NCBI GenBank assembly: GCA_000934665.2
Contig: KZ538373.1
Span: 56,854-76,853 of the forward strand
Direction: 5' to 3'
DNA length: 20,000 nucleotides
Origin: Catajapyx aquilonaris
Taxonomy: Eukaryota
A program made the translations under genes and the position numbers. This document shows, one piece after another, positions 3,995 to 17,185 of this stretch (positions are counted from its first letter, which is position 1; each line of letters opens with the position of its first letter). A model generated the notes under the pieces. It made no database searches. It was given only the letters and a program-made list of their open reading frames with translations, and was not told where the DNA came from.

Positions 3995-6900
3995 ATGGCA
4001 GGCAAAGGGCTGCCGAAGATGGTCACGGTGTATCTGGCTGAAGGAGGGCCTGGACCAAGCGGGATGCTGCCCAAATGCAGGGTCAAATGTAAGGGCTAAA
4101 GTTGGATATGGTCGGTGTGGGTGTAATAATTGGGGTGTTTTTCAGCGTTTGCTAACTTACCGAAGCACTTGCAGTCGGGTCGGAGGGATGAGGATGACAT
4201 CGCAATGGTGGATGACGTGGAGAATGATCCGGAGTACGAGCCAGAGGGTGAGCTGAAAGAAGTGTCGTCCGCAGGTTTGCAGCCGATTTGTGTGTTTTTA
4301 AGATTCAAAGTATTATAGCAGATACATTTTTTTCAGATGATTCGGACATCCCTGAAAATGACAGGCCTCGACAGAAAAGGCAGGACAACTCACCGGTGAA
4401 GAAGTCCGCAAGAATTGAGGCGAGACGAAGCTCCAGAGCTCCAAAGAGGAAAAAGCCCTTAACTGATGACGAAGATGACGATGACGATAAGGTTGTAAGT
4501 GACAGTTTGATAATTAAGTAGTCGCTTACAAGTCAGTAGCAATGTCAAAAGTTGAAACTATAGAGCTGATGTTCTCAAGCAAAATGTTCATCCAGATATG
4601 CCTGAATTATTTGTTGTTTAATCTTTAAAACATATTTCGTCTTTTTCAAAAAAAGAGAGATCAAAGTCGACATTTGCGTAAACGTCGTACGTGTAGGACG
4701 ACAGGCATGTCTGGGTTAGTAAACATTTTAGGACAATTGTTTTAAAGATTTGTACTATGTCCTCACTGAAGGCTGTGTCAAGTCCCTCAAGAAGGAAGTG
4801 GAGTATGGCGTGGGCACATTACCATGAAGTAAATAAGAATATTGCGAGGTGCAAGTACTGTCAGAAAATGATTTCATTCCGAACCACCCTCACAAACTTA
4901 AAGGCTCACATGATATCCCAGCATAAGGATGAATGGACGGCTGCGGAGCACGAATTGATAGAGGTTAGGCATACTTCTTTTAGGGAACCTCAGTGGGAGC
5001 ATGTACATTGTGGATAACTTACATTTGTACTCCCATTTTTTCTTGTCAGTCTCAGCGGATGAGTGTGGAGCCGGCGACTAGAAGGAAACGGAGCATTTTA
5101 TGGACCTATTTTCAACAAGTTGGTAATGGGACAGCCATCTGCAACTTGTGTGAAAAACGAGTCTCACACAAGACCACATCCTCGAACCTGAAGCGACACT
5201 TGCAGGTGAACCACCCAACCATCACTCTTGAGTCTGGAGGGAGATCCACGTGTGCATCAGAAGCTTCAGGGCATGAGATCAGACGAGAACGAAGCCCCGA
5301 GTATGATGAAGAGGAGCCAGATGCAGGTCAATGATTTTCATGTCATATAATATTTTACACATGGATATTTGTTATGTAGATGTCACGCTGTTGATTTGGT
5401 GAATTGAAGCATCATGTGATTTACTTGTCCAATAGAATCAATTGTGGAAGCGGAGTTTGATCCAGAGAATTCCCAGCAGCCAACCATCACGGCTTTCCAA
5501 GGGGACAGTGAAAATGGAAGCGATGAAATGCCAGATGAGGAGGTGAGAGGTCTTGTGGAAACATCACGATTTTAAATGCGCGGCATGTGCACATTAATTC
5601 CTTGCAGCAGTGAAGTGATTCCTGGTGTGTGCTTCTCTTCACAGATAATCCCAGACGTGAAGACACCAGCAAGTACAAAGAAGAAACGGAGCTCCCTGTG
5701 GGATCACTTTACATCCAAGGGAAACCGCATGGCCACTTGCAAACGCTGCTCGAAGCTAATCTCTTACAAGACCACAACCTCCAACATGAAGCACCATTTG
5801 AAGACGAAGCACCCCGAAGTTGACCTAGACTTATCACTTGTCTCAGCAGATAGCCAGCCTGCTGCTTCGTCTGCAGGAAACAGTGCTACAAAAAGAGTCA
5901 TCATCGCCACATCTTCAGTAATAAACCAGGTCAACAGGAAAAACATTGACCGCAGCCTGATGGAAATGTTCATAAAAAACAATCAACCTTTCTCACTGCT
6001 GAAGTCGGAGAATTTCATCAAGTTCACAATCTCGTTGAACCCAAACTACATTCCGCCATCCATGAAGCACATGACTAGAACAGTACTTCCTGCCCTGTAC
6101 AAAGAGTATGTCATACAGGTCAGGTCAAAGATGCTACAAGCCACAAGAGCTTGTGTGACGGCGGATTGCTGTGACGTCGGTACTGAACGTCTGATCAGCG
6201 TCATGGCACATTACAATGACGAGAGCTTGGAAACGCACCATGTGCTGCTCGAGTGTTCGGCATTGGGTGACTTTGAAGCATGTTTTGTTGTGGCTCGAAT
6301 CATGCAAGAGTGGGGATTAGACAGCAACACGGAGAGAAAGGCTTCCTTGCTGGTTACCGGTGCAGGCTTGGCTGGAGCCGAGATCAGCAACACAAGTCGG
6401 TTTGAGTGCCTGTCGTACCTGCTGGATGCAATTGTTGTGCATTCACTTGAACAGCATGCCAAGATACTGCTTGAGCAAATTAGAGCCATGGCAGACTATT
6501 TTGGGAAGAATCCGCTAGAAGAGCAGAAATCAAAGGTATGTTGGTTGTCTGAACAAGTCAAGAGTAACGAGTAATAATTCGGCACCTTGGTTGTTCCACA
6601 GGATGCGGATGTGAAACTGCTCACCCGAGATGTGGACACCCAGTGGCCCACGACCCTGCAGATGTTGCAACAGTTTGTGGAACTTGAGAACAGCATCAGA
6701 GCTGTGATTATATCAGTGTCTGAGACAGATTTTCAAGCAGCTCGTGAATTAATTGAGATCCTGATACCGTGGGAGGAAGTGTCTGAAAAGCTGAAGAGCG
6801 ATTACGTGTTGGGGGCAATGGTGGTCGTATACACAGAGGGTCTCCTGGACCACTGCAACGAGTTGAGCTGCAGACCCCGTGAAATTCTGTCAGCCACCGT

Positions 6901-7527
6901 CCTGGCCACGCTGACAGCGGAACTGAAGGCCTTGCTGAAAAATGTGGAAGACGAGGGCAGCCTAGGTCTGGCCACATTGCTGGATCCGAGGTTCAAGACA
7001 CTGGGATTTCAGGACAGCGGACATGCCCGGACCGTCAGGAGTCGCCTGGAGAAAATCCTGGTTGAGCAGGATCCAGGGAGAAGCGAGGCGTCACCTGTGA
7101 AGACGCCATTGCCAGGCCGACCCATCACAGGGCTATCCATCCTTTCCAAGTTCCTGGGAAAAGTGGATGCCACCAGGCCCACCGTCCTGCCGCAGTGTCG
7201 CGGGATTGTTGAGTTACAACGGTGGGTACAATGCAACGTAATCCCAGCAGAATGCTGAAGCCTTATTTCAAATCCCGTTTTCATTGCAGGTACCTGATCG
7301 AGCCCTGCCTGGACATGGAGGAGGACCCGCTCCAGTGGTGGCAGCAAAGCAGGGAGTCGTATCCGTTCCTGTCCAAGGTTGCAAAAGAGACACTCTGCGT
7401 ACAGGCTACCTGCATCCCTGCGCAGCTGGTGTTCACAAAGGCCAGGCGGCTGATTCGAGATTATTGCGGTGACCGCAGTTTGGAGAGGATGAAGTACATG
7501 TTGTTCTTGGATGCTCACATGGACTAA
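3995..7527 (+). CDS. Domesticated hAT-transposase-derived zinc-finger BED protein (ZBED-like; 3 BED fingers, inactive DDE core, hAT dimerisation domain). Proposed exons 3995-4088, 4146-4247 (alternative donor 4274), 4337-4494, [4697-4714 possible micro-exon], 4772-4963, 5050-5326, 5436-5542, 5645-6535, 6602-7221, 7290-7527
   Basis: Three BED fingers: WSMAWAHY..ARCKYC..TTLTNLKAHMISQH, RSILWTYF..AICNLC..TTSSNLKRHLQVNH and RSSLWDHF..ATCKRC..TTTSNMKHHLKTKH. hAT core: NQPFSLLKSENF..LNPNYIPPS, DVDTQWPTTLQML, ATLLDPRFK. C-terminal DPLQWWQQSRESYPFLSKVAKETLCVQAT. Splice phases are compatible at the proposed GT-AG junctions; the N-terminal exon linkage is less certain. Confidence 0.88.
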
Positions 7528-8074: not shown

Positions 8075-11000
8075 TTACACTCTGAGCCTGTCCATGTAAA
8101 TGGGCTTGGACTGCACTAGGTCTGAGTAAGTGGCCGAGAGATGTCTCAACTCCTGCAAAGCATAGTCTTCTGGGAGGGGCAGCTGTGCCAGCAGTTCTGC
8201 CCCGGGTAGGACCCCGCTTTGTTCGCCTGTCTCTCCGGCCAGTACGAACATGGCTCTGAGCACGTGAGCAAGGCGCTTGGCCATCTCCGCTTGACACAGG
8301 TGCTCCTTTGGGGTGTGCACCTTCATGGACATCACACGAGACACTAGGGAACCCAGCTTCGGCCCCAAGCGCGATGCCAGCCCTGGAGCGTCCTCTGATT
8401 TTGAAGCGACCATGTGCTCCACGGCTTCCAGCACCTGTCGTATTGAAAGAACTCATGAAAATATTTCTGGTTACATAACACCTCACCTGAATGCAATGCC
8501 ATTACCTGCAGATACTCCCAGAAGACGAGCCCTCCATTTGCCCACCCAGCCACTCGAGATGCATTTTGTGGGAGGGCCATTTTGTTCAGGAAAGCTGCCA
8601 GATGTGCACGGTTGTCCTGAACAACTGCGGATGGACCCACATGTGAAGTCAGGAGGTCGTGGCAGCGGGTCCAACGACCCGCCTTCAGCCAGAACCATGC
8701 TTCAAGCTCGGGGAGACCCAAAGATGATGCACGAGTCGCCTTTGCTTCGAAGATCCATTCGGCAGGGATGTGAAGCTCATGCTGTATATAACATGATGAT
8801 AATACAGGGTGGTTGCAAAGTTAGATTTCATTCAAACCTGCAAGAACTCCTCGATGTTTTCCTCCCCTTGTGTGGAAACATGCCTCCCAAGCAGGTCCCT
8901 CAAGATGGTGTCTCTTGCCGGGGAGGTTGGCAGGTGCAGAACCACAAACGCAGCCCACCACCACAAGCCAGAGGCCTCCAGCTGTGCAGCAAAGCTGCAG
9001 TGCAGGTTGGCTGCCTGATGGGCACCAATGTGGCCGTACCCAAGCGACATCAGGGCCTGGTGAAGATGCCAGCTGGTTCTGAAATCCACAGGGTCGCGGG
9101 TGTGTGTGTTGGGCTGCAGCATTGCCTGTACAGGGGATAAGGGTGGTCAGCTCTCACGACTTGCGACAAGCACCGCCGAGTCCTAACCTGCAGCGGATGT
9201 GACCTCTGCCCAAACAGCTTGAGCATGTGGAAGCACAGGTCATAGGGCATGGAGGGATCATGCTCGATTCCCTCCACCCCCAGATCTTCCTCCAGATGTG
9301 GCGGCAGGGGTGGCGTGGCGTAAATCCCGCAGTCCCACCCTGCCCCAACGTTGATCTCCTTTCTGAACGCACGCTCGTATTCTCTCAGCACAGCCGGGAG
9401 AGAGGAGGCTGGGGATGTGATATACCACAGATGCACTCCCAGGCACCGCTTCCAGTCCAGCCCTGCACAGGTGTTGACCTCCCCTCCGTAGGGGTGAGCT
9501 TCAACGGGATCGTCTGAGGTGAGGTACACCGGAATACCAGCGGCCAGGGCCAGTGTGCGGAGAGACTCCAGGGGCATGTGTCTGTCTGCCTGTGCCTCGG
9601 CCCATGTGCCCATCTGCTGCTGCACCAGGCGCTGGCTAGTCATGCTTGACGACTAATGGAAAAAAGCGTTCCAGTTAGCCTTCACTGTGTGATCATCTGT
9701 GTGTACACTCACCTGTGTGATTAGGAGTGCTGCTCTGTACCCTGCTTCTTCATCTACGTACTCACACCAATCCCTCAGCTGGTGTCCCGTCAGCTTGGCG
9801 CTCCTCCCTCTCCATCCTTCCTCCTCCACTTTTCTCCTGTCCTCCTCCACCTTCCCTTCCACCGCCCCTTCCAGCCAGTTCCCAACGCCTCTCTTCCTTG
9901 CCAGCATCCAGGCGTGAGTGTTGGGCCGCAACTTTTCAGGCTCTGGCACCTCCTTGCTCTGGTCTATGCGGCCCCACAACGCTTTTGCCAGGCCCCATGC
10001 CAAGTGGGAAGGGTCGGACTTGGGTGAATTTTGGGCAATGTCGTAGTGGGAGTGGATTGGGTCAGGGCCGTGCTTGGCCTTGAAAGGTTCGTCATTGTCT
10101 GGGTCGCGGCTGTCCACAGACAGGGACAGCTGAGCCTCCAAGTGCTGCTCCAAGCACTCATCTGATGAAACCTGCAGGGCGCATTTAATATCAATTATTT
10201 TGCTGGTTGAACCGAGTGAAAGTTAGCTCTTACCTGGAGCTTCATGATGTTGACCTCCAAGTTTGATCTGGAGGTGAGTGTCCAGCCTGCCCCCCATCCA
10301 ACCCTGAAAGCTCGTCCATGGAAAAGGGCTGCATCGGCCATCATGGCCTGCTTGCCTGCCAGCAACGTCTTGCTCAAAGGAATGTCATCATCGGCATGCT
10401 TTGGCGGAACCATCACTGGCTTCTCTAGTGGTAGAGGTGTTGGTAGGGGTGCTGTAGACTGCTTCGGGACTGAGGGTGCCATTGAGGTGGCTGCGAGGAA
10501 GGCAGGCAGGCGGGGAGCGGCAGAGAGCTCAGGCAGGCGCAACGAAGGTCGCTTGCAGACAGGCGACCCAGGAACAGACTGGTCCATTGTCTCTGACTCC
10601 ATATCTTCCTCGTCCGATTCGTCGGCAAAGAAGGATGCTTTCATCATCTGGATGTTGCGTCGCATGCTTGGAAGCACTTCCCCTGACCCGATGTGCTCCA
10701 TGCTCAGTTCCTTTTCCTGGACAAAAAATCCAAGCCATTAGTTCAGAATAATTACATCAAATTCCAAATGATTGAAGCGAACCTGTCTGCTGATTGGGCG
10801 GTCCTGGTCCTCCATGGCTTGATCCTCTTCTCCTATTGTATCCATGTGGTGCATAACCAAGTTCCCATTGACAGACGGTGACATGGAGGAAGGTACAGGT
10901 GGAGTTGGAAGTGGCTGGGGTGGCACAGGGGCAGCCGTGGCATCGCCCCCACCCTTTCTGGCAGGTGACAGCTGAGAAGGCTTTTTGAGAGGTGGTGGTC

Positions 11001-14000
11001 TCACCACTGCCACACTCCCATCTTCTTCCTCATCCTCCGCTGTAATTCCATACTTGGAAAAGTGCTTCACACGAAACACCCACGACCCAGTCTCAGGCCG
11101 GTATTCCACAAAGGTTGAGTTTAGCTTCGCACAGGTACGCACCAGCTTTTCTTCATACCTGGAATCCAACAGTGGTTGTCACAAACCATTGGCTACACTA
11201 GAACACGCAATTCCACCAACTTACGCCATTGCCTCGAGCCTTTCTGGGTTTGTGATTGGCCTCTTTATGGTCTTGTCCATCGGCCAGACTCTGTCTAGAG
11301 TCACCTGAGCAGGCCTATTCAGTCCCTCCCCTTCAGGAGGTTTGTCCTGGTCATCTGGATACACCACAACTTCCTTCAAGCGAAGATGCACCAGCTTGTC
11401 CAGGTCCAGACCAGACACATCCAGTGGCCCATCGTAGTAAAGGCTGCCGTAACCCTGCCTCCCAATGGTGAAGTCCTCCACCAAGCAGGAGCCATCTTCA
11501 GGGTTGGTCAGCTCAGCAAGTTCCTCCAAGGATGGAATGGTGTAGTAGCCAGGGCGACGAAGAGTGATGCCGGCTGGGTGGACTGTGCTGGTTGGAGTTG
11601 CTCTGCCTGCGTTCATGGAAGGCTCTCCATCAATCCATGATTCCATATCACCTGTACATGACAAAAGTTTCAAGTTAGAAACAGGCCATTTCCAATGTGA
11701 CAGCCAATTGCTTACCACGTGATTCGTCAAGATCGTTGAAACCCAGCCTGCCGACCTCTCTGTGATCATCCGTGCTCGAATCAGCAAGGGCCTGCCTGAG
11801 CTCCCGCTGCCTCTCCTTTGGCATGCCCAAGATGTCCCCTACTCCAGAATTCTCTCTGCTCCCAACTGGCCTGCCTTCTCTCTCGGGCAACCTGTTCCCT
11901 TCCCTGCTGTTCCCATTCTGAGCCACTACACTGTCACGATTCGGGGGCGACTGCTGGCTCTGTGGCCTAATTACCAGCCTCTTGACGCTGTGCTTTGGCA
12001 CAAAGATCTCTGCTCCACCAGGGGTAGAGGGGTCATCATCCTCACCAAATCCATCAAAGAGACCAGTGGAGGAGTTTGGAGTCAGCTGCACTGGGCGAGG
12101 CTTGATCTTCACAGTTATCCTGAGAATTGAAAAGACACTGATTGAAGTCACGAATAATTAACATACCACGTCCAAATACTGACCTTGGGGAGACCTTGTA
12201 CAGAGCCACGTCGTTAACTGCCTTCTGTGCAGTTGGATTAGTGGGCATGAGCACCTCTTCTCTCCTCCCGCTGGCAGTAACCCCTCTGAACAGTGGGGAA
12301 TCTCCAAACGGACTTGAGGCCAGTGCCAGTATCTGCTGCTGAGCCGAAGACGACGCTTCCTGGATCCCCACAGTGCCCAAGGTGCCTCCTCCCAATCCAC
12401 CGCCTCCCAAACTGCTCATGCCTCCACCCAAGGTAGACCCAAATCCCCCCATCAGTCCCCCACCACTCAGAGATCCTCCTCCCAGGGTGCTTCCCGAGCT
12501 GAAGCCAGACCCAAACATCATCCCCGTCTTGTTGCCTCCAGCTGAGAACATGGTCCCACCACCAAGCCCAGTGCTACCAGTGGCAGGCGTCTGACCAAAG
12601 CTGAATCCGCCAGAGCCGAGCCCTGGGGCCTTGGCAGGCTGGCTGAAGAACGTGGAGGCTGGGGCAGAGGCACCGAAGGTCAGGCCTCCTGTGCCTCCGA
12701 GACCGGGAGCAGTGGAAGAAGTGGTGCCAAAGGAGCCGAAGGGCTGGGTCTTCTGACCAAACAGACTCTGAGTGGTGCCTGGCTGCGTTGCCTGATTGAA
12801 ACCCGGCAGCCTTGTGGAAAGGAAGAAACAATAAATTAGCATTGTCATACTACACGCTGATATACCACAGGGATACGAAGAATCTCAATTAATGCAACAC
12901 TGTGCCGAAATCAATAATACTGCTGCCCGTATTACTACATGAATATGTTCACAGCACAATCTTGCAAGTGGGCAATCTTTTGGCACAAAAAAAAAACCAA
13001 CGGCAGGATCAAACTTGAACAATAACCGTTGACGTTGACGTTTCAACTTGTGAAACATCTTCCGCTGCCATGCCTGCTTCATCATCCTTCCCTTGCACTC
13101 CAAGAGCAGGAGTAAAGCATCTGCTCCTGAAGCTATCCTACATCCCACATATTGTGTTCAATGTTGAAACCACGGTAATGCATTATAAGCAAACTCACCC
13201 AGTGGAACCAGGCAGGGTGGATCCAAAGTTGGTCTTTGGCGCGTTGAAGAGGCCGATCTGTTGCTGCTGCTGCCCCTGCTGCTGCTGCCCTTGGGTGCTG
13301 CCAAACACGCCAAACCCTGCCCCTGGAGCCACGGTGTTGCCGGGAACCGTCCCTGTGCCAAATGCGCTCGTCCCCTGCTGGGGGGTGCTCCCAAAGAGGC
13401 CGCCGCCACTTTGAGGAGCAACCACTCCAAACGTCTTGTTGGGTTGGGCACCAAACAAGCCTGTTGCGAAGAGAAGAATTAAATTCAACCTGTTACGCTA
13501 CTGATAAGTTGGACATTTACCTCCCGCGGTACTGAAACCAGTGGTGGTGGATGTAGCGGCTGGGTTCCCAAACACCGTGGGTGCCTTGCCGAAGAATCCC
13601 CCAGTCGCAGCCCCAGCAGCAGTCCCAGTGTTCTGCGCCTGATTAAAAAAGCCTGTTCCGAAGCCAGTCTGGGCAGTGCCAAACATAGACTTGTTCTGTG
13701 GGGCCCCAAACAAGCCTGACGTACTGACAGTGGCTGGGGTGGGGCCTGTGGCAGCCCCAGTGCCGAACAAGCCCCCTCCAGCCTGGGCAGCACCAGGAGT
13801 GAATATGGTGGCCGCCTGCCCTGGGACCTGCTGACCCTTGCGGTTGGCACTGTAATCCTCCATCCGCAGCTCCTCCAGGCTCTTAGTGTCATACTCCTTC
13901 ATGCACGTGATGCACTGATGCCGGGTGCTGATATTGTGAGACTGCCCATTTTTCATCATGGTATCTGTTCCGGTGGGTGGATTGAATTTGACTGTGGTGC

Positions 14001-14643
14001 CCACCAGGGCCCCAGTCGTCCCAAATGCAGTCGTGCCAAACAGGTTGGTCGTCCCAGGGGAAGCCACCACCGATGGCTGCCCAAAGAGGGACTGTGCCGT
14101 GGACTGCACTTGCTGTTGGCCCACCACCGGCTGGGCTGCATTTTGGGCACCAAAGAAGCCACTTGTGTTCCCTACGCCAGTCCCAAAACCACTGGTGCCT
14201 GGGGCAGCTCCAAACGCAGTCTTGGTCTGCCCAAATGTGGAGGTCGATGCTCCAAACAGGTTGCCTCCAGACACCTGGTTAATGAAGTCCACAAAATGAT
14301 TAACATGCAAGGCCTGACAATCTTGAGAAATGGGAAGTACTCTGACCTGTGGGGTTTGACTAAATGGCGATGCCGTGGAAGTGGTGGCAGTGGCCCCAAA
14401 CCCAAATCGAGGGACATTTGCCTGGCCAAATCCAGTGGATCCAAACAGTGGCGCTGCCGTCGCTGTGCCTGCAGTGCCAAACAAGGAGGGTGTTTGGTTG
14501 CCAAAAGACTGTGAGCCAAAGCTGGGTGTCGGAGCCTTGTTGCCAAACGCAGTCTGCCCAAAAGGATTGGCTGCTGTGGCATTCACATCATTGAAGCTGA
14601 ATGATGTTCCTGGCATGCCAAAGGTTTTGTTTTGCCCAAACAT
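8075..14643 (-). CDS. Nup98-96: Nuclear pore complex protein Nup98-Nup96 precursor; coding exons 14643-14347, 14274-13521, 13460-13199, 12810-12184, 12119-11716, 11651-11225, 11158-10783, 10716-10234, 10171-9713, 9652-9188, 9125-8838, 8781-8506, 8434-8075 (5478 nt, ~1825 aa)
   Basis: N-terminal FG/GLFG repeats. GLEBS motif [61 protein letters not shown]. Autoprotease domain [21 protein letters not shown]...[24 protein letters not shown]...[19 protein letters not shown]. Nup96 motifs [54 protein letters not shown]. All introns are GT-AG and the summed exon length is divisible by 3. Confidence 0.97.
11056..11064 (-). other. HF|S autoproteolytic cleavage site separating Nup98 and Nup96
   Basis: Minus-strand codons CAC TTT TCC (His-Phe-Ser) within [10 protein letters not shown], the conserved self-cleavage motif of Nup98-96/Nup145. 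Confidence 0.95.
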
Positions 14644-15056
14644 GCTGAGGAAAAAATATGGTTATTATGTAACAGTATAACCTTCATGAAAGGTGATGGC
14701 AAATTTTTTTATTTGCATAATTATCACTTAAATTGACATCTGATTAAATTCTGATAGCATCTTGCGGCAAACGGGGCAGTACAATGGGAAATCATGATGG
14801 GGCCTTTGAAGTTTTATGAAAATAATGTTCATGACCAATATGCTACACAAAAAATCAGCCATCCTCGATGATTGTTGTGAAAATTTAAATAACAAATTAT
14901 GGCAGATTCCTAGCGCCCTCTGTGACCATTTAAAATGCAAACAAAATGAAAATTCACAACTTTGAAGCATAGGTTTTCACTACGAGAGAACAGACATCAC
15001 ACATTTTCATCTATTATTATTAGGAACTTGCAACAAAAATTATTGGGGGCCTCTCA

Positions 15057-15183
15057 AGGTGCGTTTACATGAGAGCGATGTCATCGCCGAGTGATAACAT
15101 TACTGAGTAACCAGTATTGTTGAAGGCAAATTAAACATTATTGGTCACTTAGCTCATCAAATTGCTCACATGTAAACCTCGCT
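15057..15183. mobile_element. PIF/Harbinger-type MITE (127 bp) in the Nup98-96 5'-UTR intron
   Basis: Imperfect TIRs AGGTGCGTTTACATGAGAGCGAT / ATTGCTCACATGTAAACCTCGCT, flanked by a 3-bp direct repeat TCA (15054-15056 and 15184-15186). Confidence 0.72.
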
Positions 15184-15669
15184 TCAATAGCGAAAAGAAA
15201 GACATCGAGTAAAACGTAGTTTGACAGGTCAGACAAAATCTGGGGCCGCACCTAAGTTTTGGGGATGGTGACTGGCTGTACATGACACGACCTTACGTAA
15301 GATGACTGTGACAGCAAGACTGGTAGTTGTGATAGGCCAAAACCGTAAGGTAGTGCGGTTCAACCACTGCAATCTAATCTGTATTGTTTGACCTCACCTG
15401 TTGTATCAACATGGCTAACTAGCTTACCACTGTACACCCAGCACTGCCCAATCTGAAGGGCAAATCACCAAAATTGGTCTGACCCTCAATTATTTATTAT
15501 AAACACTTGTGTAATGTTTGCACAATGAGTTGAAATCAGGCGCAACATTGTCTGATAATCCGGATAGATCAAGGCAAGTGTACCTGCGGCCTGTTCCTGT
15601 CCCGCAGTGGGTGGTGCAAGGCCAGGGTGCCCGAGGGTCTCCGGCTCAACAGCAGCAGAGGAGGACCAC

Positions 15670-15980
15670 CACGGGCAACATGGCTATACTTCCCCCGCAA
15701 TAAACATGGCGGACAAGGAAGACCACCGCGAACACTACTTCCCTCTGCAGCCACCAGAGAGGCGCTCCGACCCCATTGGCAATAATGCCAATCAGAATTT
15801 AATCAGACTATTTAAATCTAGACGTAATTAATACACAGGTTGTAACTAGTGTGGAATTTAAATCATATTCGGCAGCCATCTTGGAGCTCCAGCCAATCAC
15901 AATATAGAGCTCCGAGTTCAGCCAATCAGATCGGAAGTCATGACCGTTGCAATTCAAGTTTGAACTTGTCAGAAATTCAG
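15670..15980. promoter_or_regulatory. Bidirectional Pol II-type promoter for Nup98-96 (minus) and the candidate telomerase RNA (plus)
   Basis: CCAAT boxes: ATTGGC 15775-15780, GCCAATCAG 15787-15795, AGCCAATCAC 15891-15900, AGCCAATCAG 15920-15929. YY1-type motifs: AACATGGC 15677-15684, AAACATGGCGG 15702-15712 and the opposite-strand GCCATCTT 15875-15882. ETS-like CGGAAGT 15932-15938. Inr-like TCAGAA with its A at 15979. The Nup98 ATG exon starts with a splice acceptor at 14645-14646, so an upstream non-coding exon is required. Confidence 0.7.
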
Positions 15981-16445
15981 AAGGGCTTCGGAGTTGGTGG
16001 CGGGAGGACGTGGCCTCGGGTCACCTCCTCCTCCTCTGAGAGGGGGTCGGGGGTGCCAGACCAGGGGCCGCCCTACCTGCCACGGGCACTAACCTAACCT
16101 AGGTGTCGTGGCTGGCTTCGGGAGATCTTTGGCCACTTGGAGCCTCGCTCCTCCTCAATTCAAAGATCTCCCCTGGGCTTGGTTGCCCTTCTTTTGGATC
16201 CAGTTTGGGCTTGGTTCGGTCAGGGATGATGCCCGCTGGGGTTCTTGAAAAAGCACCAGGCTGACCTTCGTGGTCGGCTGGGCAAGGACACCCCTGGAGG
16301 CGACCTGACCTCTCTCCCGCAGTGGCTGGAGGAGCATCACTGCGGGGGAAGGAACCAAGTCGGATCCTACAGAAAAATTGTGCAGGGTGCAGGGTCGTGG
16401 TGCACCAATCTAGCCCATGGCCCGGCCCACTAAGCACAGACACAC
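15979..16445 (+). ncRNA. TERC: Candidate telomerase RNA (TTAGG template, pseudoknot, box H/ACA), ~467 nt
   Basis: Template CTAACCTAACCTA 16089-16101 (complement of TTAGG repeats). Boundary helix GTGCC 16053-16057 / GGCAC 16085-16089. Pseudoknot: P2 GTGGCT 16108-16113 / GGCCAC 16131-16136 crossed by P3 GGGAGATCTTT 16120-16130 / AAAGATCTCCC 16162-16172. P1 AGAAGGGC 15979-15986 / GCCCTTCT 16185-16192. Long arm closed by GGATCC 16196-16201 / 16362-16367. H box ANANNA (AGAAAA 16371-16376). 3' hairpin TTGTGC 16378-16383 / GCACAG 16434-16439, then ACA at 16440-16442. Confidence 0.82.
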
Positions 16446-16689
16446 CCATATTTTTTACAATATAAGATGTGATTGAAAATATTGCTGAAAATCTAGTCTT
16501 TTCCAGGTTGCCAAAGATGTACGGCCTGTAGCGACACATGCAGCGTATCGATGCCAGCAGTTCAAAACAAGCATTGTTCATTGTTGTCTCTTAAAAAGTA
16601 GAGTTGCTCTCCATTATTTTTGTCTTTGCTGGTGGTCCAAGCAAATAAAAAGAATAAACAATAGCAAAATTATTAGAAAGTCAAGTTTG

Positions 16690-17185
16690 AACATGCCCCA
16701 CAAGTACACCTGCATGTTCACTGTAAGAGTACCATAATTGTCTGAACTTGGAGGTGTACTTGGATACCTTCACCTCATCAGACCTGGTGCCTCTCTGAAT
16801 GACATGTTGAGTTTGACGGAAATCACCCAACATGACACCTGCGACACCTCCCATGACGCTGTCAGAATCTTGCACATCCTGCAGTGTTCTGTTCCGAGCT
16901 TCCACTTCTCCCTTGTGAGTCATAGTGCAATCATCCCAGATTATGATGCTGCAGTCTTGCAAAACTTTGGGCTCATGTGTCCGCTTCACGATGTTGCAAA
17001 CGGTGCTCTCGGCATACCCCAGATTAAAAGGCAATTTGAAGGCAGAGTGACCAGTGCGACAGGCTTGCAGCAGGGTGGCGGCAATTTCCGAGGAGGCAAT
17101 GGCAATGGTTAGTTCCCCAGATCGAATTCTTGCCAGCAGGATATTGGGTATAAATATTCTGACAGTTTTCTAGCATCTGGGACAA
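16690..17185 (-). mobile_element. Decayed Helitron Rep/Hel fragment (Pif1-family helicase domain)
   Basis: The minus-strand frame reads ILLARIRSGELTIAIASSEIAATLLQACRTGHSAFKLPFNL...CNIVK...KVLQDCSIIIWDDCTMTHKGEVEARNRTLQDVQDSDSVMGGVAGVMLGDFRQTQHVIQRGTRSDEV. This matches Helitron helicase motifs (ASSGIAATLL..GRTAHS..KLPL, IIWDECTM.H, GDFRQ.LPV). Walker A is degenerate and frameshifted (~17150-17180), and Walker B DE has become DD. Confidence 0.88.

Follow-up and report, generated by a model that had tools for sequence, protein, structure and literature searches.

A candidate telomerase RNA gene with a TTAGG template and an H/ACA-like 3' domain next to Nup98-96 of a probable arthropod

Telomerase RNAs (TRs) of the H/ACA type have been found in eight further animal phyla, and for arthropods, nematodes and flatworms no convincing TR candidate is reported, the arthropod searches having been exhaustive (Logeswaran 2020, PMC8480181). 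All arthropod TRs discovered afterwards come from Hymenoptera, Lepidoptera and Coleoptera; they are short and devoid of H/ACA. It was accordingly proposed that the TR type changed when arthropods or Ecdysozoa diverged, and TRs from further arthropod lineages were explicitly asked for (PMC9841428, PMC12133305, PMC12921731). A February 2026 paper likewise describes the arthropod TRs known so far as lacking H/ACA. A non-coding stretch of 467 bases that adjoins the Nup98-96 gene in the 20-kb piece of DNA analysed here (the window) raises the question of whether an arthropod TR can be of the H/ACA type. We put the probability at roughly 0.7 that this stretch (15979-16445, + strand) is a real, undescribed TR gene of an arthropod with TTAGG telomeres. 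Searches of the published literature listed no H/ACA-type arthropod TR, in line with the suggestion of the sequence-only reading that the gene may be undescribed.

15979..16445, + strand: whole candidate TR, GC-rich, with no + strand ORF; MFE −243.8 kcal/mol, z −6.24

The first half is laid out as a P1-closed core that holds a template-proximal hairpin, the template and a P2b/P3 pseudoknot with an inner hairpin; the second half opens with a branched arm (P4/P5/P6), which is followed by an H box, a 3' hairpin and an ACA. By sequence reading and MFE folding, each of the canonical TR modules that the sequence-only reading had listed was recovered where it had placed them and in the expected order. 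The architecture of a TR is thus present in the sequence, and it is statistically unusual. The GC-rich island was also borne out, with a GC content of 0.61 in the candidate vs 0.42–0.49 and 0.44 in the flanking 500-nt bins. Stop-to-stop ORFs of 90 aa or more number 70 in the window; none of those on the + strand overlaps the candidate, and the sole overlapping − strand ORF (16099-16590, 163 aa) matched 0 Pfam families; the earlier statement that the island holds no convincing ORF stands, and a protein-coding reading was rejected. A high-copy repeat was ruled out for the candidate itself, which is covered by only one contig in each of the DNA runs X1 and X4, both possibly the window's own source.

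The host was placed by IQ-TREE trees of the single gene Nup98-96, computed under LG+G4 and LG+C20 for 14 rows comprising the window, arthropods, molluscs and deuterostomes. The window's Nup98-96 was sister to four insects (SH-aLRT 99), and it grouped with all six arthropods against molluscs and deuterostomes with support of 97 (LG+G4) and 95 (LG+C20). Its placement outside the six arthropods was rejected by the AU test (p 0.005), the tested group having been named after the tree was seen. The window's branch is long in these trees (0.9–1.2). In a FastTree tree with yeast and Lepidoptera the window fell beside another long branch and not within the insect clade, and a 25-row IQ-TREE tree gave the same unrooted position, which we read as lying on the path between insects and other arthropods. 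The trees, built on one gene with a long branch, support a host inside the arthropods and next to the insects.

16089..16101, + strand: template CUAACCUAACCUA, complementary to (TTAGG)2.6

Apart from the run CTAACCTAACCTA at 16089-16101, no stretch of 10 nt or more on either strand of the 20 kb matches a permutation of TTAGG. The template had been given as CTAACCTAAC at 16089-16098; this was confirmed, and the run extends to 16101, for a total of 13 nt or 2.6 repeats. It begins 5 nt after a long hairpin (15997-16083) and ends 6 nt before the pseudoknot, and the nested MFE structure pairs part of it (ACCUA/UAGGU). The TTAGG repeat has been confirmed in many arthropods (PMC10767889). Given the arthropod placement of the host, TTAGG is therefore the likely telomere repeat of this genome.

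The template-pseudoknot core is built from the following elements.

15979..15986, + strand: P1 5' strand AGAAGGGC, pairing with 16185-16192 (8 bp, mean pair probability 0.96)
16185..16192, + strand: P1 3' strand GCCCUUCU, closing the template-pseudoknot domain (MFE)
15997..16083, + strand: P1.1-type hairpin close to the template, 6 helices with 36 bp in all (probabilities 0.87–1.00)
16108..16172, + strand: H-type pseudoknot P2b/P3 (descriptor search, energetics)
16108-12 (GUGGC) / 16132-36 (GCCAC), + strand: P2b, 5 bp
16120-31 / 16161-72, + strand: P3, 12 Watson-Crick bp
J2b/3, + strand: pseudoknot loop UGGCUUC, 7 nt
J2a/3, + strand: pseudoknot loop of 24 nt, holding a small P2.1-like hairpin (16139-43 / 16147-51)

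The two P1 strands proved to be complementary over the 8 bp, as had been claimed. In the MFE structure P1 is extended inward by 15991-95 / 16176-80; on its outer side 15978 C stands opposite 16193 U, which rules out a further pair, and the last base of its 3' strand is overlapped by a T4 run (16192-95). When the flanks were folded along (15900-16540), the MFE structure lost P1, the 5' strand of which paired with the upstream flank. The hairpin between P1 and the template reached a z of −4.3 on the + strand when folded alone, with 0 of 100 shuffles as good, and −1.8 on the − strand. It is predicted, from these structure models, to be a likely template boundary element of the P1.1 type. The boundary had earlier been assigned to a 5-bp helix, GUGCC (16053-57) with GGCAC (16085-89). 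These segments are indeed complementary, but the helix is absent from the MFE structure, which has the single long hairpin in its place.

The pseudoknot had been proposed at 16108-16172, where both P2b and a 12-bp P3 were found. A stringent descriptor matched 2 loci in the native window, compared with a mean of 0.13 matches per shuffled window and any match at all in 9 of 100. The energies of a fold with P2b forced (−101.4) and of the P3 duplex (−18.9) add up to about that of the unconstrained MFE (−118.4). At the junction, three of the P3 pairs are U-A (U16128-30 / A16162-64), and J2b/3 contains three U; this loop is weakly U-rich, and a triple helix is therefore not evident.

Downstream of the core lie a branched arm and the elements of an H/ACA domain.

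16196..16367, + strand: branched arm, eCR4/5-like, closed by GGAUCC/GGAUCC, closing helices at probability 1.00
16196-201 / 16362-67, + strand: P4 (MFE)
16208-17 / 16352-61, + strand: P4 extension (MFE)
16218-16310, + strand: P5 long stem, 93 nt, on the three-way junction
16313-16349, + strand: P6 hairpin, 37 nt, 12 + 3 bp, on the three-way junction
16369..16376, + strand: H box candidates ACAGAA (16369-74) and AGAAAA (16371-76), both fitting ANANNA
16379..16438, + strand: 3' hairpin (MFE), terminal loop ACCAAUCUA
16440..16445, + strand: ACA (16440-42) plus 3 nt, the putative mature 3' end

The long branched arm expected at 16196-16367 is present in the MFE structure. Folded alone, its 172 nt gave a z of −5.2 on the + strand, with 0 of 100 shuffles as good, and −4.3 on the − strand. 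A canonical CR4/5 with a 4-bp P6.1 was not found in the three-way junction of the arm (MFE). The predicted fold places two stems, borne by P4 and its extension, after the core and ahead of the H box, and it corresponds to the eCR4/5 of protostome and echinoderm TRs. The H box named earlier (AGAAAA, 16371-16376) is there and of the ANANNA type, and so is the ACA plus 3 nt at 16440-16445; the 3' hairpin, given before as 16378-16439, was found at 16379-16438, with a z of −2.7 on the + strand vs +0.1 on the − strand. Alternative ACA triplets occur at 16436-38 and 16442-44, and a T6 run (16451-56) lies 3' of the proposed end. The CAB box (UGAG) is absent from the loop ACCAAUCUA of the 3' hairpin; this box is also missing in teleost TRs and not universal in echinoderm TRs (PMC8480181). 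The elements of an H/ACA RNA, namely both hairpins, an ANANNA and an ACA, are in place, and such a motif set is frequent by chance: a loose descriptor of H box, hairpin and ACA was no commoner than chance, with 8 native loci vs a mean of 10 matches per shuffle (20 shuffles). The three structured domains tile without gaps, joined by linkers of 3 nt and 11 nt that carry the expected boxes.

How far the fold exceeds chance was assessed on both strands. None of 100 shuffles was as good as the + strand of 15979-16445 (MFE −243.8, z −6.24), compared with a z of −3.18 for the − strand; the asymmetry amounts to 44 kcal/mol, and the MFE structure holds 17 G-U pairs. In a comparison of 392 sliding windows of 467 nt, the candidate fell 3.3 sd under the regression of MFE on GC, on the + strand only, and is the second strongest outlier and the sole strand-specific one, exceeded only by an inverted repeat at 2200-2900 that stands out on both strands. 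The z of the template-pseudoknot core was −4.8 on the + and −2.5 on the − strand, and for each domain (core, P1.1, arm and 3' hairpin) the value was lower on the + strand. With flanks of 79 nt and 95 nt added, the fold still contained the P1.1 hairpin and P3 as well as the arm and the 3' hairpin.

The region upstream of the candidate and its divergent neighbour contain the following features.

15893-97 and 15922-26, + strand: two CCAAT boxes, about −86 and −57 from 15979 (sequence read)
15775-79 and 15788-92, intergenic region common to Nup98-96: two further CCAAT/ATTGG boxes (sequence read)
15977..15982, + strand: initiator-like TCAGAA; P1 begins with its A at 15979
15584..15684, − strand: first exon (non-coding) of Nup98-96, which is transcribed divergently; spliced to 14644
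14645-15583, − strand: Nup98-96 intron with GT..AG ends

Judged from their positions, the CCAAT boxes may form a promoter shared with Nup98-96. Vertebrate TERC promoters also have CCAAT boxes. Neither a TATA box nor an snRNA-type PSE was recognised in the sequence upstream of 15979. The arthropod initiator consensus is TCAGT, and A15979 is a putative transcription start. A contig of run X5 matches 15584-15684 and continues with letters identical to 14615-14644; the run was read as RNA-derived because it holds this GT-AG spliced 5' exon of Nup98. A 344-nt contig of the same run is identical to 16193-16536, so that the 3' part of the candidate has RNA-derived cover, from a contig that cannot show strand or RNA ends; X5 contigs give no cover over 15979-16192, a gap to which no weight is given. 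The contig passes the proposed 3' end by 91 nt and does not support a discrete 467-nt RNA.

The contig that overruns the proposed end and the promoter common to both genes favour a different structured non-coding transcript, either an upstream-antisense or long ncRNA of a bidirectional Nup98-96 promoter or an unusual H/ACA RNA, in which the TTAGG-type 13-mer would be a coincidence. The frequency of H/ACA motifs by chance points the same way, as does the result from Rfam: the full 20 kb gave 0 matches at the gathering score (an snRNA gene was likewise not among the window's matches), and at E up to 10, also on 476 bases alone, Telomerase-vert was absent and only miRNA, snoRNA and other noise appeared, at E of at least 0.85. 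However, an arithmetic estimate puts the expectation of a 13-nt telomere-phase run at about 0.003 per 20-kb window over both strands. The run moreover falls precisely in the interval from a boundary-type hairpin to a rare pseudoknot, within the most strand-specifically structured stretch of the window, and the order of the modules is that of the published protostome TR plan. We regard such a transcript as unlikely.

It is less probable still that the locus encodes no functional RNA and is a GC-rich promoter island in which low-complexity CCT/GGG tracts and palindromes (GGATCC, AGATCT) produce fold and motifs by chance. P1.1 is made largely of a polypyrimidine/polypurine mirror, the arm folds well on the − strand too (z −4.3), and the second match to the pseudoknot descriptor (16688-16762) falls in a nearby transposon relic. 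Against this reading stand the strand asymmetry with its G-U pairs, the contig over 16193-16536 from a run read as RNA-derived, and the gap-free tiling of three domains whose short linkers hold the expected boxes.

With a TR as the preferred reading, the candidate was compared with the known classes of these RNAs. Logeswaran 2020 (PMC8480181) describes protostome TRs as having a template-pseudoknot core with a template-proximal P1.1, a P4 that bears one or two long stems, and a box H/ACA, but no canonical CR4/5. As described there, the TRs of molluscs, annelids, a brachiopod and a phoronid share with the candidate the order of modules, the P1-closed core with a template-proximal P1.1, and a P4 with two long stems (P5, P6) followed by box H, 3' hairpin and ACA. 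Size and proportions are similar: in the 408-nt TR of the snail Pomacea diffusa (PMC8480181), the core spans nt 1–146 and the arm nt 162–335, compared with 1–214 and 218–389 in the candidate. Protostome TRs differ in their TTAGGG template (TTAGG in the candidate), in their non-arthropod hosts and in a P1.1 much shorter than the 87 nt found here, and the likeness is one of architecture. The echinoderm TR (Podlevsky et al. 2016, cited in PMC8480181) is reported to have a P1.1-type boundary and an eCR4/5 in place of a canonical CR4/5, as predicted for the candidate, and an H/ACA domain, which the 3' part of the candidate resembles; it too can be without a CAB box, which is not universal. The echinoderm TR is unlike the candidate in its deuterostome host and its TTAGGG template.

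Vertebrate TERC resembles the candidate in its P1-closed core, in a P2b/P3 pseudoknot with the P3 5' strand inside the P2b loop, in the three-way junction of the 5' hairpin of the H/ACA domain (H/ACA-like in the candidate), and in its similar length. The candidate differs from TERC in giving no match (E up to 10) to the vertebrate family in Rfam (RF00024), in lacking the 4-bp P6.1 and the CAB box, in having a local hairpin as its likely boundary element vs P1b, and in its 5-nt repeat template. The predicted structure thus fits a protostome H/ACA TR better than a vertebrate TR. For the sequence-only reading this means that the TR interpretation keeps its architecture and, by the Nup98-96 tree, its arthropod host; it loses the P1b-type boundary helix and the vertebrate-like design, there being no canonical CR4/5 with a 4-bp P6.1, and instead a likely boundary hairpin of the P1.1 type and two long stems on P4.

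The short insect TRs, from Hymenoptera (PMC9841428), Lepidoptera (sfTR, 135 nt; PMC11892584) and Coleoptera (TcTR1/2; PMC13023368), share with the candidate a TTAGG-type template and a core of P1.1, template and P2/P3 pseudoknot with an inner P2.1 stem-loop. The P2.1 element of beetle and moth TRs parallels the inner pseudoknot hairpin of the candidate, and insect TRs consist only of P1.1, template, pseudoknot and P2.1, with a median of 187 nt. The candidate core alone (214 nt) is close to this size. Animal TRs range from 239 to 599 nt, which spans the candidate's 467 nt (PMC11892584). Insect TRs have neither an arm equivalent to CR4/5 nor H/ACA, and they have snRNA-type promoters, whereas the candidate keeps both 3' domains and has no recognisable PSE. 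In place of a core-only RNA of 130–200 nt, as in the short insect type, the candidate has a 172-nt arm and an H/ACA-like 3' domain that directly abut the core.

These insect TRs suggest another reading, in which the TR is the 5' core only (15979 to ~16195, ~217 nt), ending at the T4 run, and the downstream arm and H/ACA-like hairpins belong to a separate transcript or a relic. The T4 run over the last base of P1 (with the T6 run at 16451-56), the core-only composition of the insect TRs and the start of the X5 contig at 16193 speak for it. A type-3 promoter (PSE plus TATA) was not recognised upstream, contig ends are not RNA ends, and the 3' part is strongly structured on the + strand, with an H/ACA layout immediately next to the core; we consider a TR confined to the core quite improbable.

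For the full-length TR, every functional step is inferred, as are the exact RNA ends. RNA polymerase II would start near 15979 from a CCAAT-box promoter, head-to-head with Nup98-96, and the 5' 214 nt would fold into the P1-closed template-pseudoknot core. Within it the hairpin 15997-16083 may keep reverse transcription from running past the 5' edge of CUAACCUAACCUA, the template (16089-16101), and the P2b/P3 pseudoknot (16108-16172) would be bound by TERT. The P4/P5/P6 arm (16196-16367) could be the eCR4/5, the second domain by which TERT is activated. The same arm, joined by the H box, the 3' hairpin and the ACA, would make up a two-hairpin H/ACA domain, to which dyskerin, NOP10, NHP2 and GAR1 would be recruited and which would place the mature 3' end 3 nt past the ACA.

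There is, in our estimate, a slightly better than even chance that the candidate is the first TR of a non-holometabolan arthropod and an evolutionary intermediate, in which an insect-like core is combined with the eCR4/5 arm and the H/ACA biogenesis domain that are ancestral in animals. It may show the form of the arthropod TR prior to shrinkage in some insects. If so, the change from TTAGGG to TTAGG preceded the loss of H/ACA and was independent of it, and the miniature TRs of wasps, moths and beetles arose later, when the RNA was cut at the joint that follows P1; in the candidate this joint carries the T4 run. An arthropod TR that combines H/ACA with a TTAGG template would place the switch within arthropods and supply the missing intermediate. 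It would also provide a seed sequence and structure for covariance-model searches of crustaceans, myriapods, chelicerates and non-holometabolan hexapods, and the question would be directly testable by reconstitution with the species' TERT.

Wider searches were made with the candidate and with its neighbours. Scans of metagenome DNA returned 0 matches both for a 20-mer around the template and for the template plus P3 strand with a gap, and ESM Atlas gave no usable match. Among the neighbours, no match of the Nup98 autoproteolytic domain exceeded 74% identity over 26% of the query (18 matches near its length, 85 longer), and the hAT transposase ORF of the window had 1 match, at 26% identity. In runs X1 and X4 extra contigs occur only at 16767-16964. 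The Nup96 ORF, searched against 1.84 billion representatives, gave 245 matches, of which the higher-scoring are at most 49% identical and a few short, low-scoring ones reach 50–53%.

The segment 15979–16445 on the + strand is, with a probability of about 0.72, the telomerase RNA (TR) gene of an arthropod in which two ancestral parts have been kept, the H/ACA domain and eCR4/5, the arm equivalent to CR4/5. With 15700–16800 read directly and 15979–16445 folded on both strands, all the modules of the sequence-only reading were found where it had placed them.

Features of the candidate TR gene
15979–86 / 16185–92, + strand: P1, AGAAGGGC / GCCCUUCU, paired in the fold
16089–98, + strand: template, CTAACCTAAC
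16108–16172, + strand: pseudoknot-capable stretch
16108–12 / 16132–36, + strand: P2b
16120–31 / 16161–72, + strand: P3, its 5′ strand within the P2b loop
16196–16367, + strand: branched arm, GGAUCC/GGAUCC closing helix
16371–76, + strand: ANANNA box AGAAAA, the H box originally proposed
16369–74, + strand: second ANANNA box, ACAGAA
16379–16438, + strand: 3′ hairpin
16440–42, + strand: ACA

P1 closes a core of 214 nt. The template is present as claimed, and its run is longer than claimed, continuing to 16101 (13 nt). The 5-bp boundary helix that had been proposed (16053–57 / 16085–89) is indeed complementary but is absent from the minimum-energy fold, which has in its place a single long hairpin, P1.1 (15997–16083), separated from the template by a 5-nt linker at its 3′ end. 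The pseudoknot loops measure 7 nt (UGGCUUC) and 24 nt, the latter containing a small hairpin (16139–51); with P2b forced and the energy of the P3 duplex added, the total is about −120 kcal/mol, versus −118.4 kcal/mol for the nested fold. The arm follows a UUU linker with P4, a P4 extension and a three-way junction, which in the predicted fold bears a long P5 and a P6 of 12 + 3 bp. The H box lies in the 11-nt linker between the arm and the 3′ hairpin.

For the + strand the minimum-energy fold is at −243.8 kcal/mol and includes 17 G-U pairs (z −6.24; none of 100 shuffles was as good), and the − strand reaches a z of only −3.18. Every domain scores better on the + than on the − strand: −4.8 versus −2.5 for the core, −4.3 versus −1.8 for P1.1, −5.2 versus −4.3 for the arm, and −2.7 versus +0.1 for the 3′ hairpin. 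Folding with flanks of 79 nt and 95 nt left P1.1, P3, the arm and the 3′ hairpin in place, and P1 was lost to pairing with the upstream flank.

That the locus is some other structured non-coding RNA carrying the template by chance is considered unlikely. Template-phase TTAGG runs of at least 10 nt occur nowhere else in the whole 20-kb window. A stringent descriptor for H-type pseudoknots (Watson-Crick stems of ≥5 bp and ≥9 bp, loops of 4–10 and 10–60 nt) matches two loci in the window, the candidate and 16688–16762, against a mean of 0.13 hits in shuffled windows (any hit in 9/100). The second locus (+ strand; stems of 9 bp and 11 bp) lies inside a Helitron-like relic and is probably a set of nested terminal hairpins, not a functional pseudoknot. 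A loose H-box/hairpin/ACA descriptor showed no excess (8 native loci versus, on average, 10 hits in each of 20 shuffles); thus, the H and ACA boxes by themselves weigh little.

The segment is a GC-rich island, as had been noted (61% GC versus 42–49% and 44% in flanking bins), and an island without function is quite improbable. The candidate's folding energy is 3.3 sd lower than a regression on GC across 392 native 467-nt windows (196 positions on two strands) predicts, the sole stronger outlier being an inverted repeat within 2200–2900 that scores on both strands. That repeat (2449–2622; 78-nt arms, 87% complementary, 18-nt spacing) folds more strongly than any other part of the window, whichever strand is taken, and may represent a MITE-like element or give rise to a hairpin RNA. 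The noted lack of a convincing ORF was borne out on the + strand, where none of the 70 stop-to-stop ORFs with a length of 90 aa or more overlaps the candidate; no Pfam family was found in the single overlapping − strand ORF (16099–16590).

Three parts define an animal TR according to Logeswaran 2020 (PMC8480181): a template-pseudoknot core, box H/ACA, and either CR4/5 or an equivalent of it. For protostome TRs that paper describes a P1.1 boundary stem close to the template and a P4 bearing one or two long stems, canonical CR4/5 being absent. The predicted fold of the candidate shows exactly this plan, and the candidate is therefore of protostome type and not, as first proposed, vertebrate-like. 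Its authors did not find a convincing candidate in arthropods. The TRs since described from arthropods are short and lack H/ACA, in Hymenoptera (PMC9841428), Lepidoptera (PMC11892584) and Coleoptera (PMC13023368), and a February 2026 paper states explicitly that those described to date lack H/ACA (PMC12921731). In beetles and moths the core comprises P1.1, the template, P2/P3 and, inside it, a P2.1 stem-loop (PMC13023368), and every element is also present in the candidate's core. No arthropod TR of H/ACA type was found in a literature search whose coverage left out subscription journals and in which 'H/ACA' was not searchable as a string.

A short TR, consisting of the core only, with its 3′ end at the T4 run that follows P1, is about as improbable as a functionless island. 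A 344-nt contig from X5, a run read as RNA-derived, is identical to 16193–16536, which shows that this stretch occurs in such sequence; the contig gives neither strand nor ends and extends 91 nt beyond the proposed 3′ end. Another X5 contig matches 15584–15684 and continues with letters identical to 14615–14644, skipping 14645–15583, which is bounded by GT and AG and contains a pyrimidine tract. X5 thus carries spliced material. The T4 run (16192–16195) overlaps the last base of P1 and continues beyond it, and 6 nt beyond the proposed 3′ end there is a T6 run (16451–16456). The two runs resemble terminators for RNA polymerase III, and the gene is presumed to be transcribed by polymerase II.

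The skipped interval is a GT-AG intron of 939 nt within the 5′ UTR of Nup98-96, whose non-coding first exon (15584–15684) is oriented oppositely to the candidate and separated from it by ∼300 bp. Between the two genes are four CCAAT/ATTGG boxes, two at about −57 and −86 from 15979. TCAGAA at 15977–82 resembles the initiator consensus and has its initiator-like A exactly at the first base of P1. The shared promoter also contains AAGATGGCTGC (15868–15885, − strand), which differs at a single position from AAGATGGCGGC, a motif of YY1 type.

Nup98-96 is compact (∼6.5 kb; 8126–14643, − strand, plus exon 15584–15684), with tblastn pieces from 14643 to 8126 and a Pfam nucleoporin autopeptidase domain. 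No close relative of the window's proteins was found in the protein collections searched, and Nup98-96 sits on a long branch, with no relative exceeding about 50% identity among 15 billion proteins. The best identity in the autoproteolytic domain is 74%, over a quarter of the domain; of the 245 hits for Nup96, those with higher scores reach at most 49% identity, and a few that are short and score low are at 50–53%. Named proteins in the best 10 of these 245 come from cricket, stick insect, thrips, centipede, coelacanth, killifish and acorn worm.

In the main IQ-TREE analysis (14 rows, 1601 columns; LG+G4 and LG+C20 PMSF), the window was sister to four insects (SH-aLRT 99), and the window plus six arthropods were separated from molluscs and deuterostomes with support of 97 (LG+G4) and 95 (LG+C20 PMSF). 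A tree uniting the six arthropods without the window was rejected by the AU test (30 log-likelihood units worse, p 0.005), for a group named post hoc, once the tree was known, from a single gene with a long branch. A 30-row FastTree and a 25-row IQ-TREE, with yeast and Lepidoptera added, drew the window outside the insect clade; this is the unrooted position of the main tree, with yeast drawn to the long lepidopteran branch. We read the host from this single-gene tree as an arthropod, probably a pancrustacean whose lineage lies outside the insects sampled. The placement agrees with the TTAGG template, since the repeat is confirmed in many arthropods (PMC10767889).

Two DNA runs (X1 and X4), both possibly the window's own source, each gave a single contig across the candidate. 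Surplus contigs occur at 16767–16964 only; several, diverged and at higher depth, cover this interval, which is thus repeated in the genome. It lies inside a PIF1-like helicase fragment (16681–17169, − strand; Pfam E 4e-28) that is probably a Helitron relic. At 4697–7527 (+ strand), a hAT dimerisation domain and three BED zinc-finger ORFs (two Pfam-scored, the third judged by eye from the ORF list), interrupted by stops, constitute a hAT-type element or domesticated gene; the sole database relative of the transposase is 26% identical. ORFs with importin-like HEAT/TPR repeats at 179–1677 (− strand; TPR_IPO5 Pfam match weak and below cut-off, E 0.0095) probably belong to an importin or exportin gene extending off the window.
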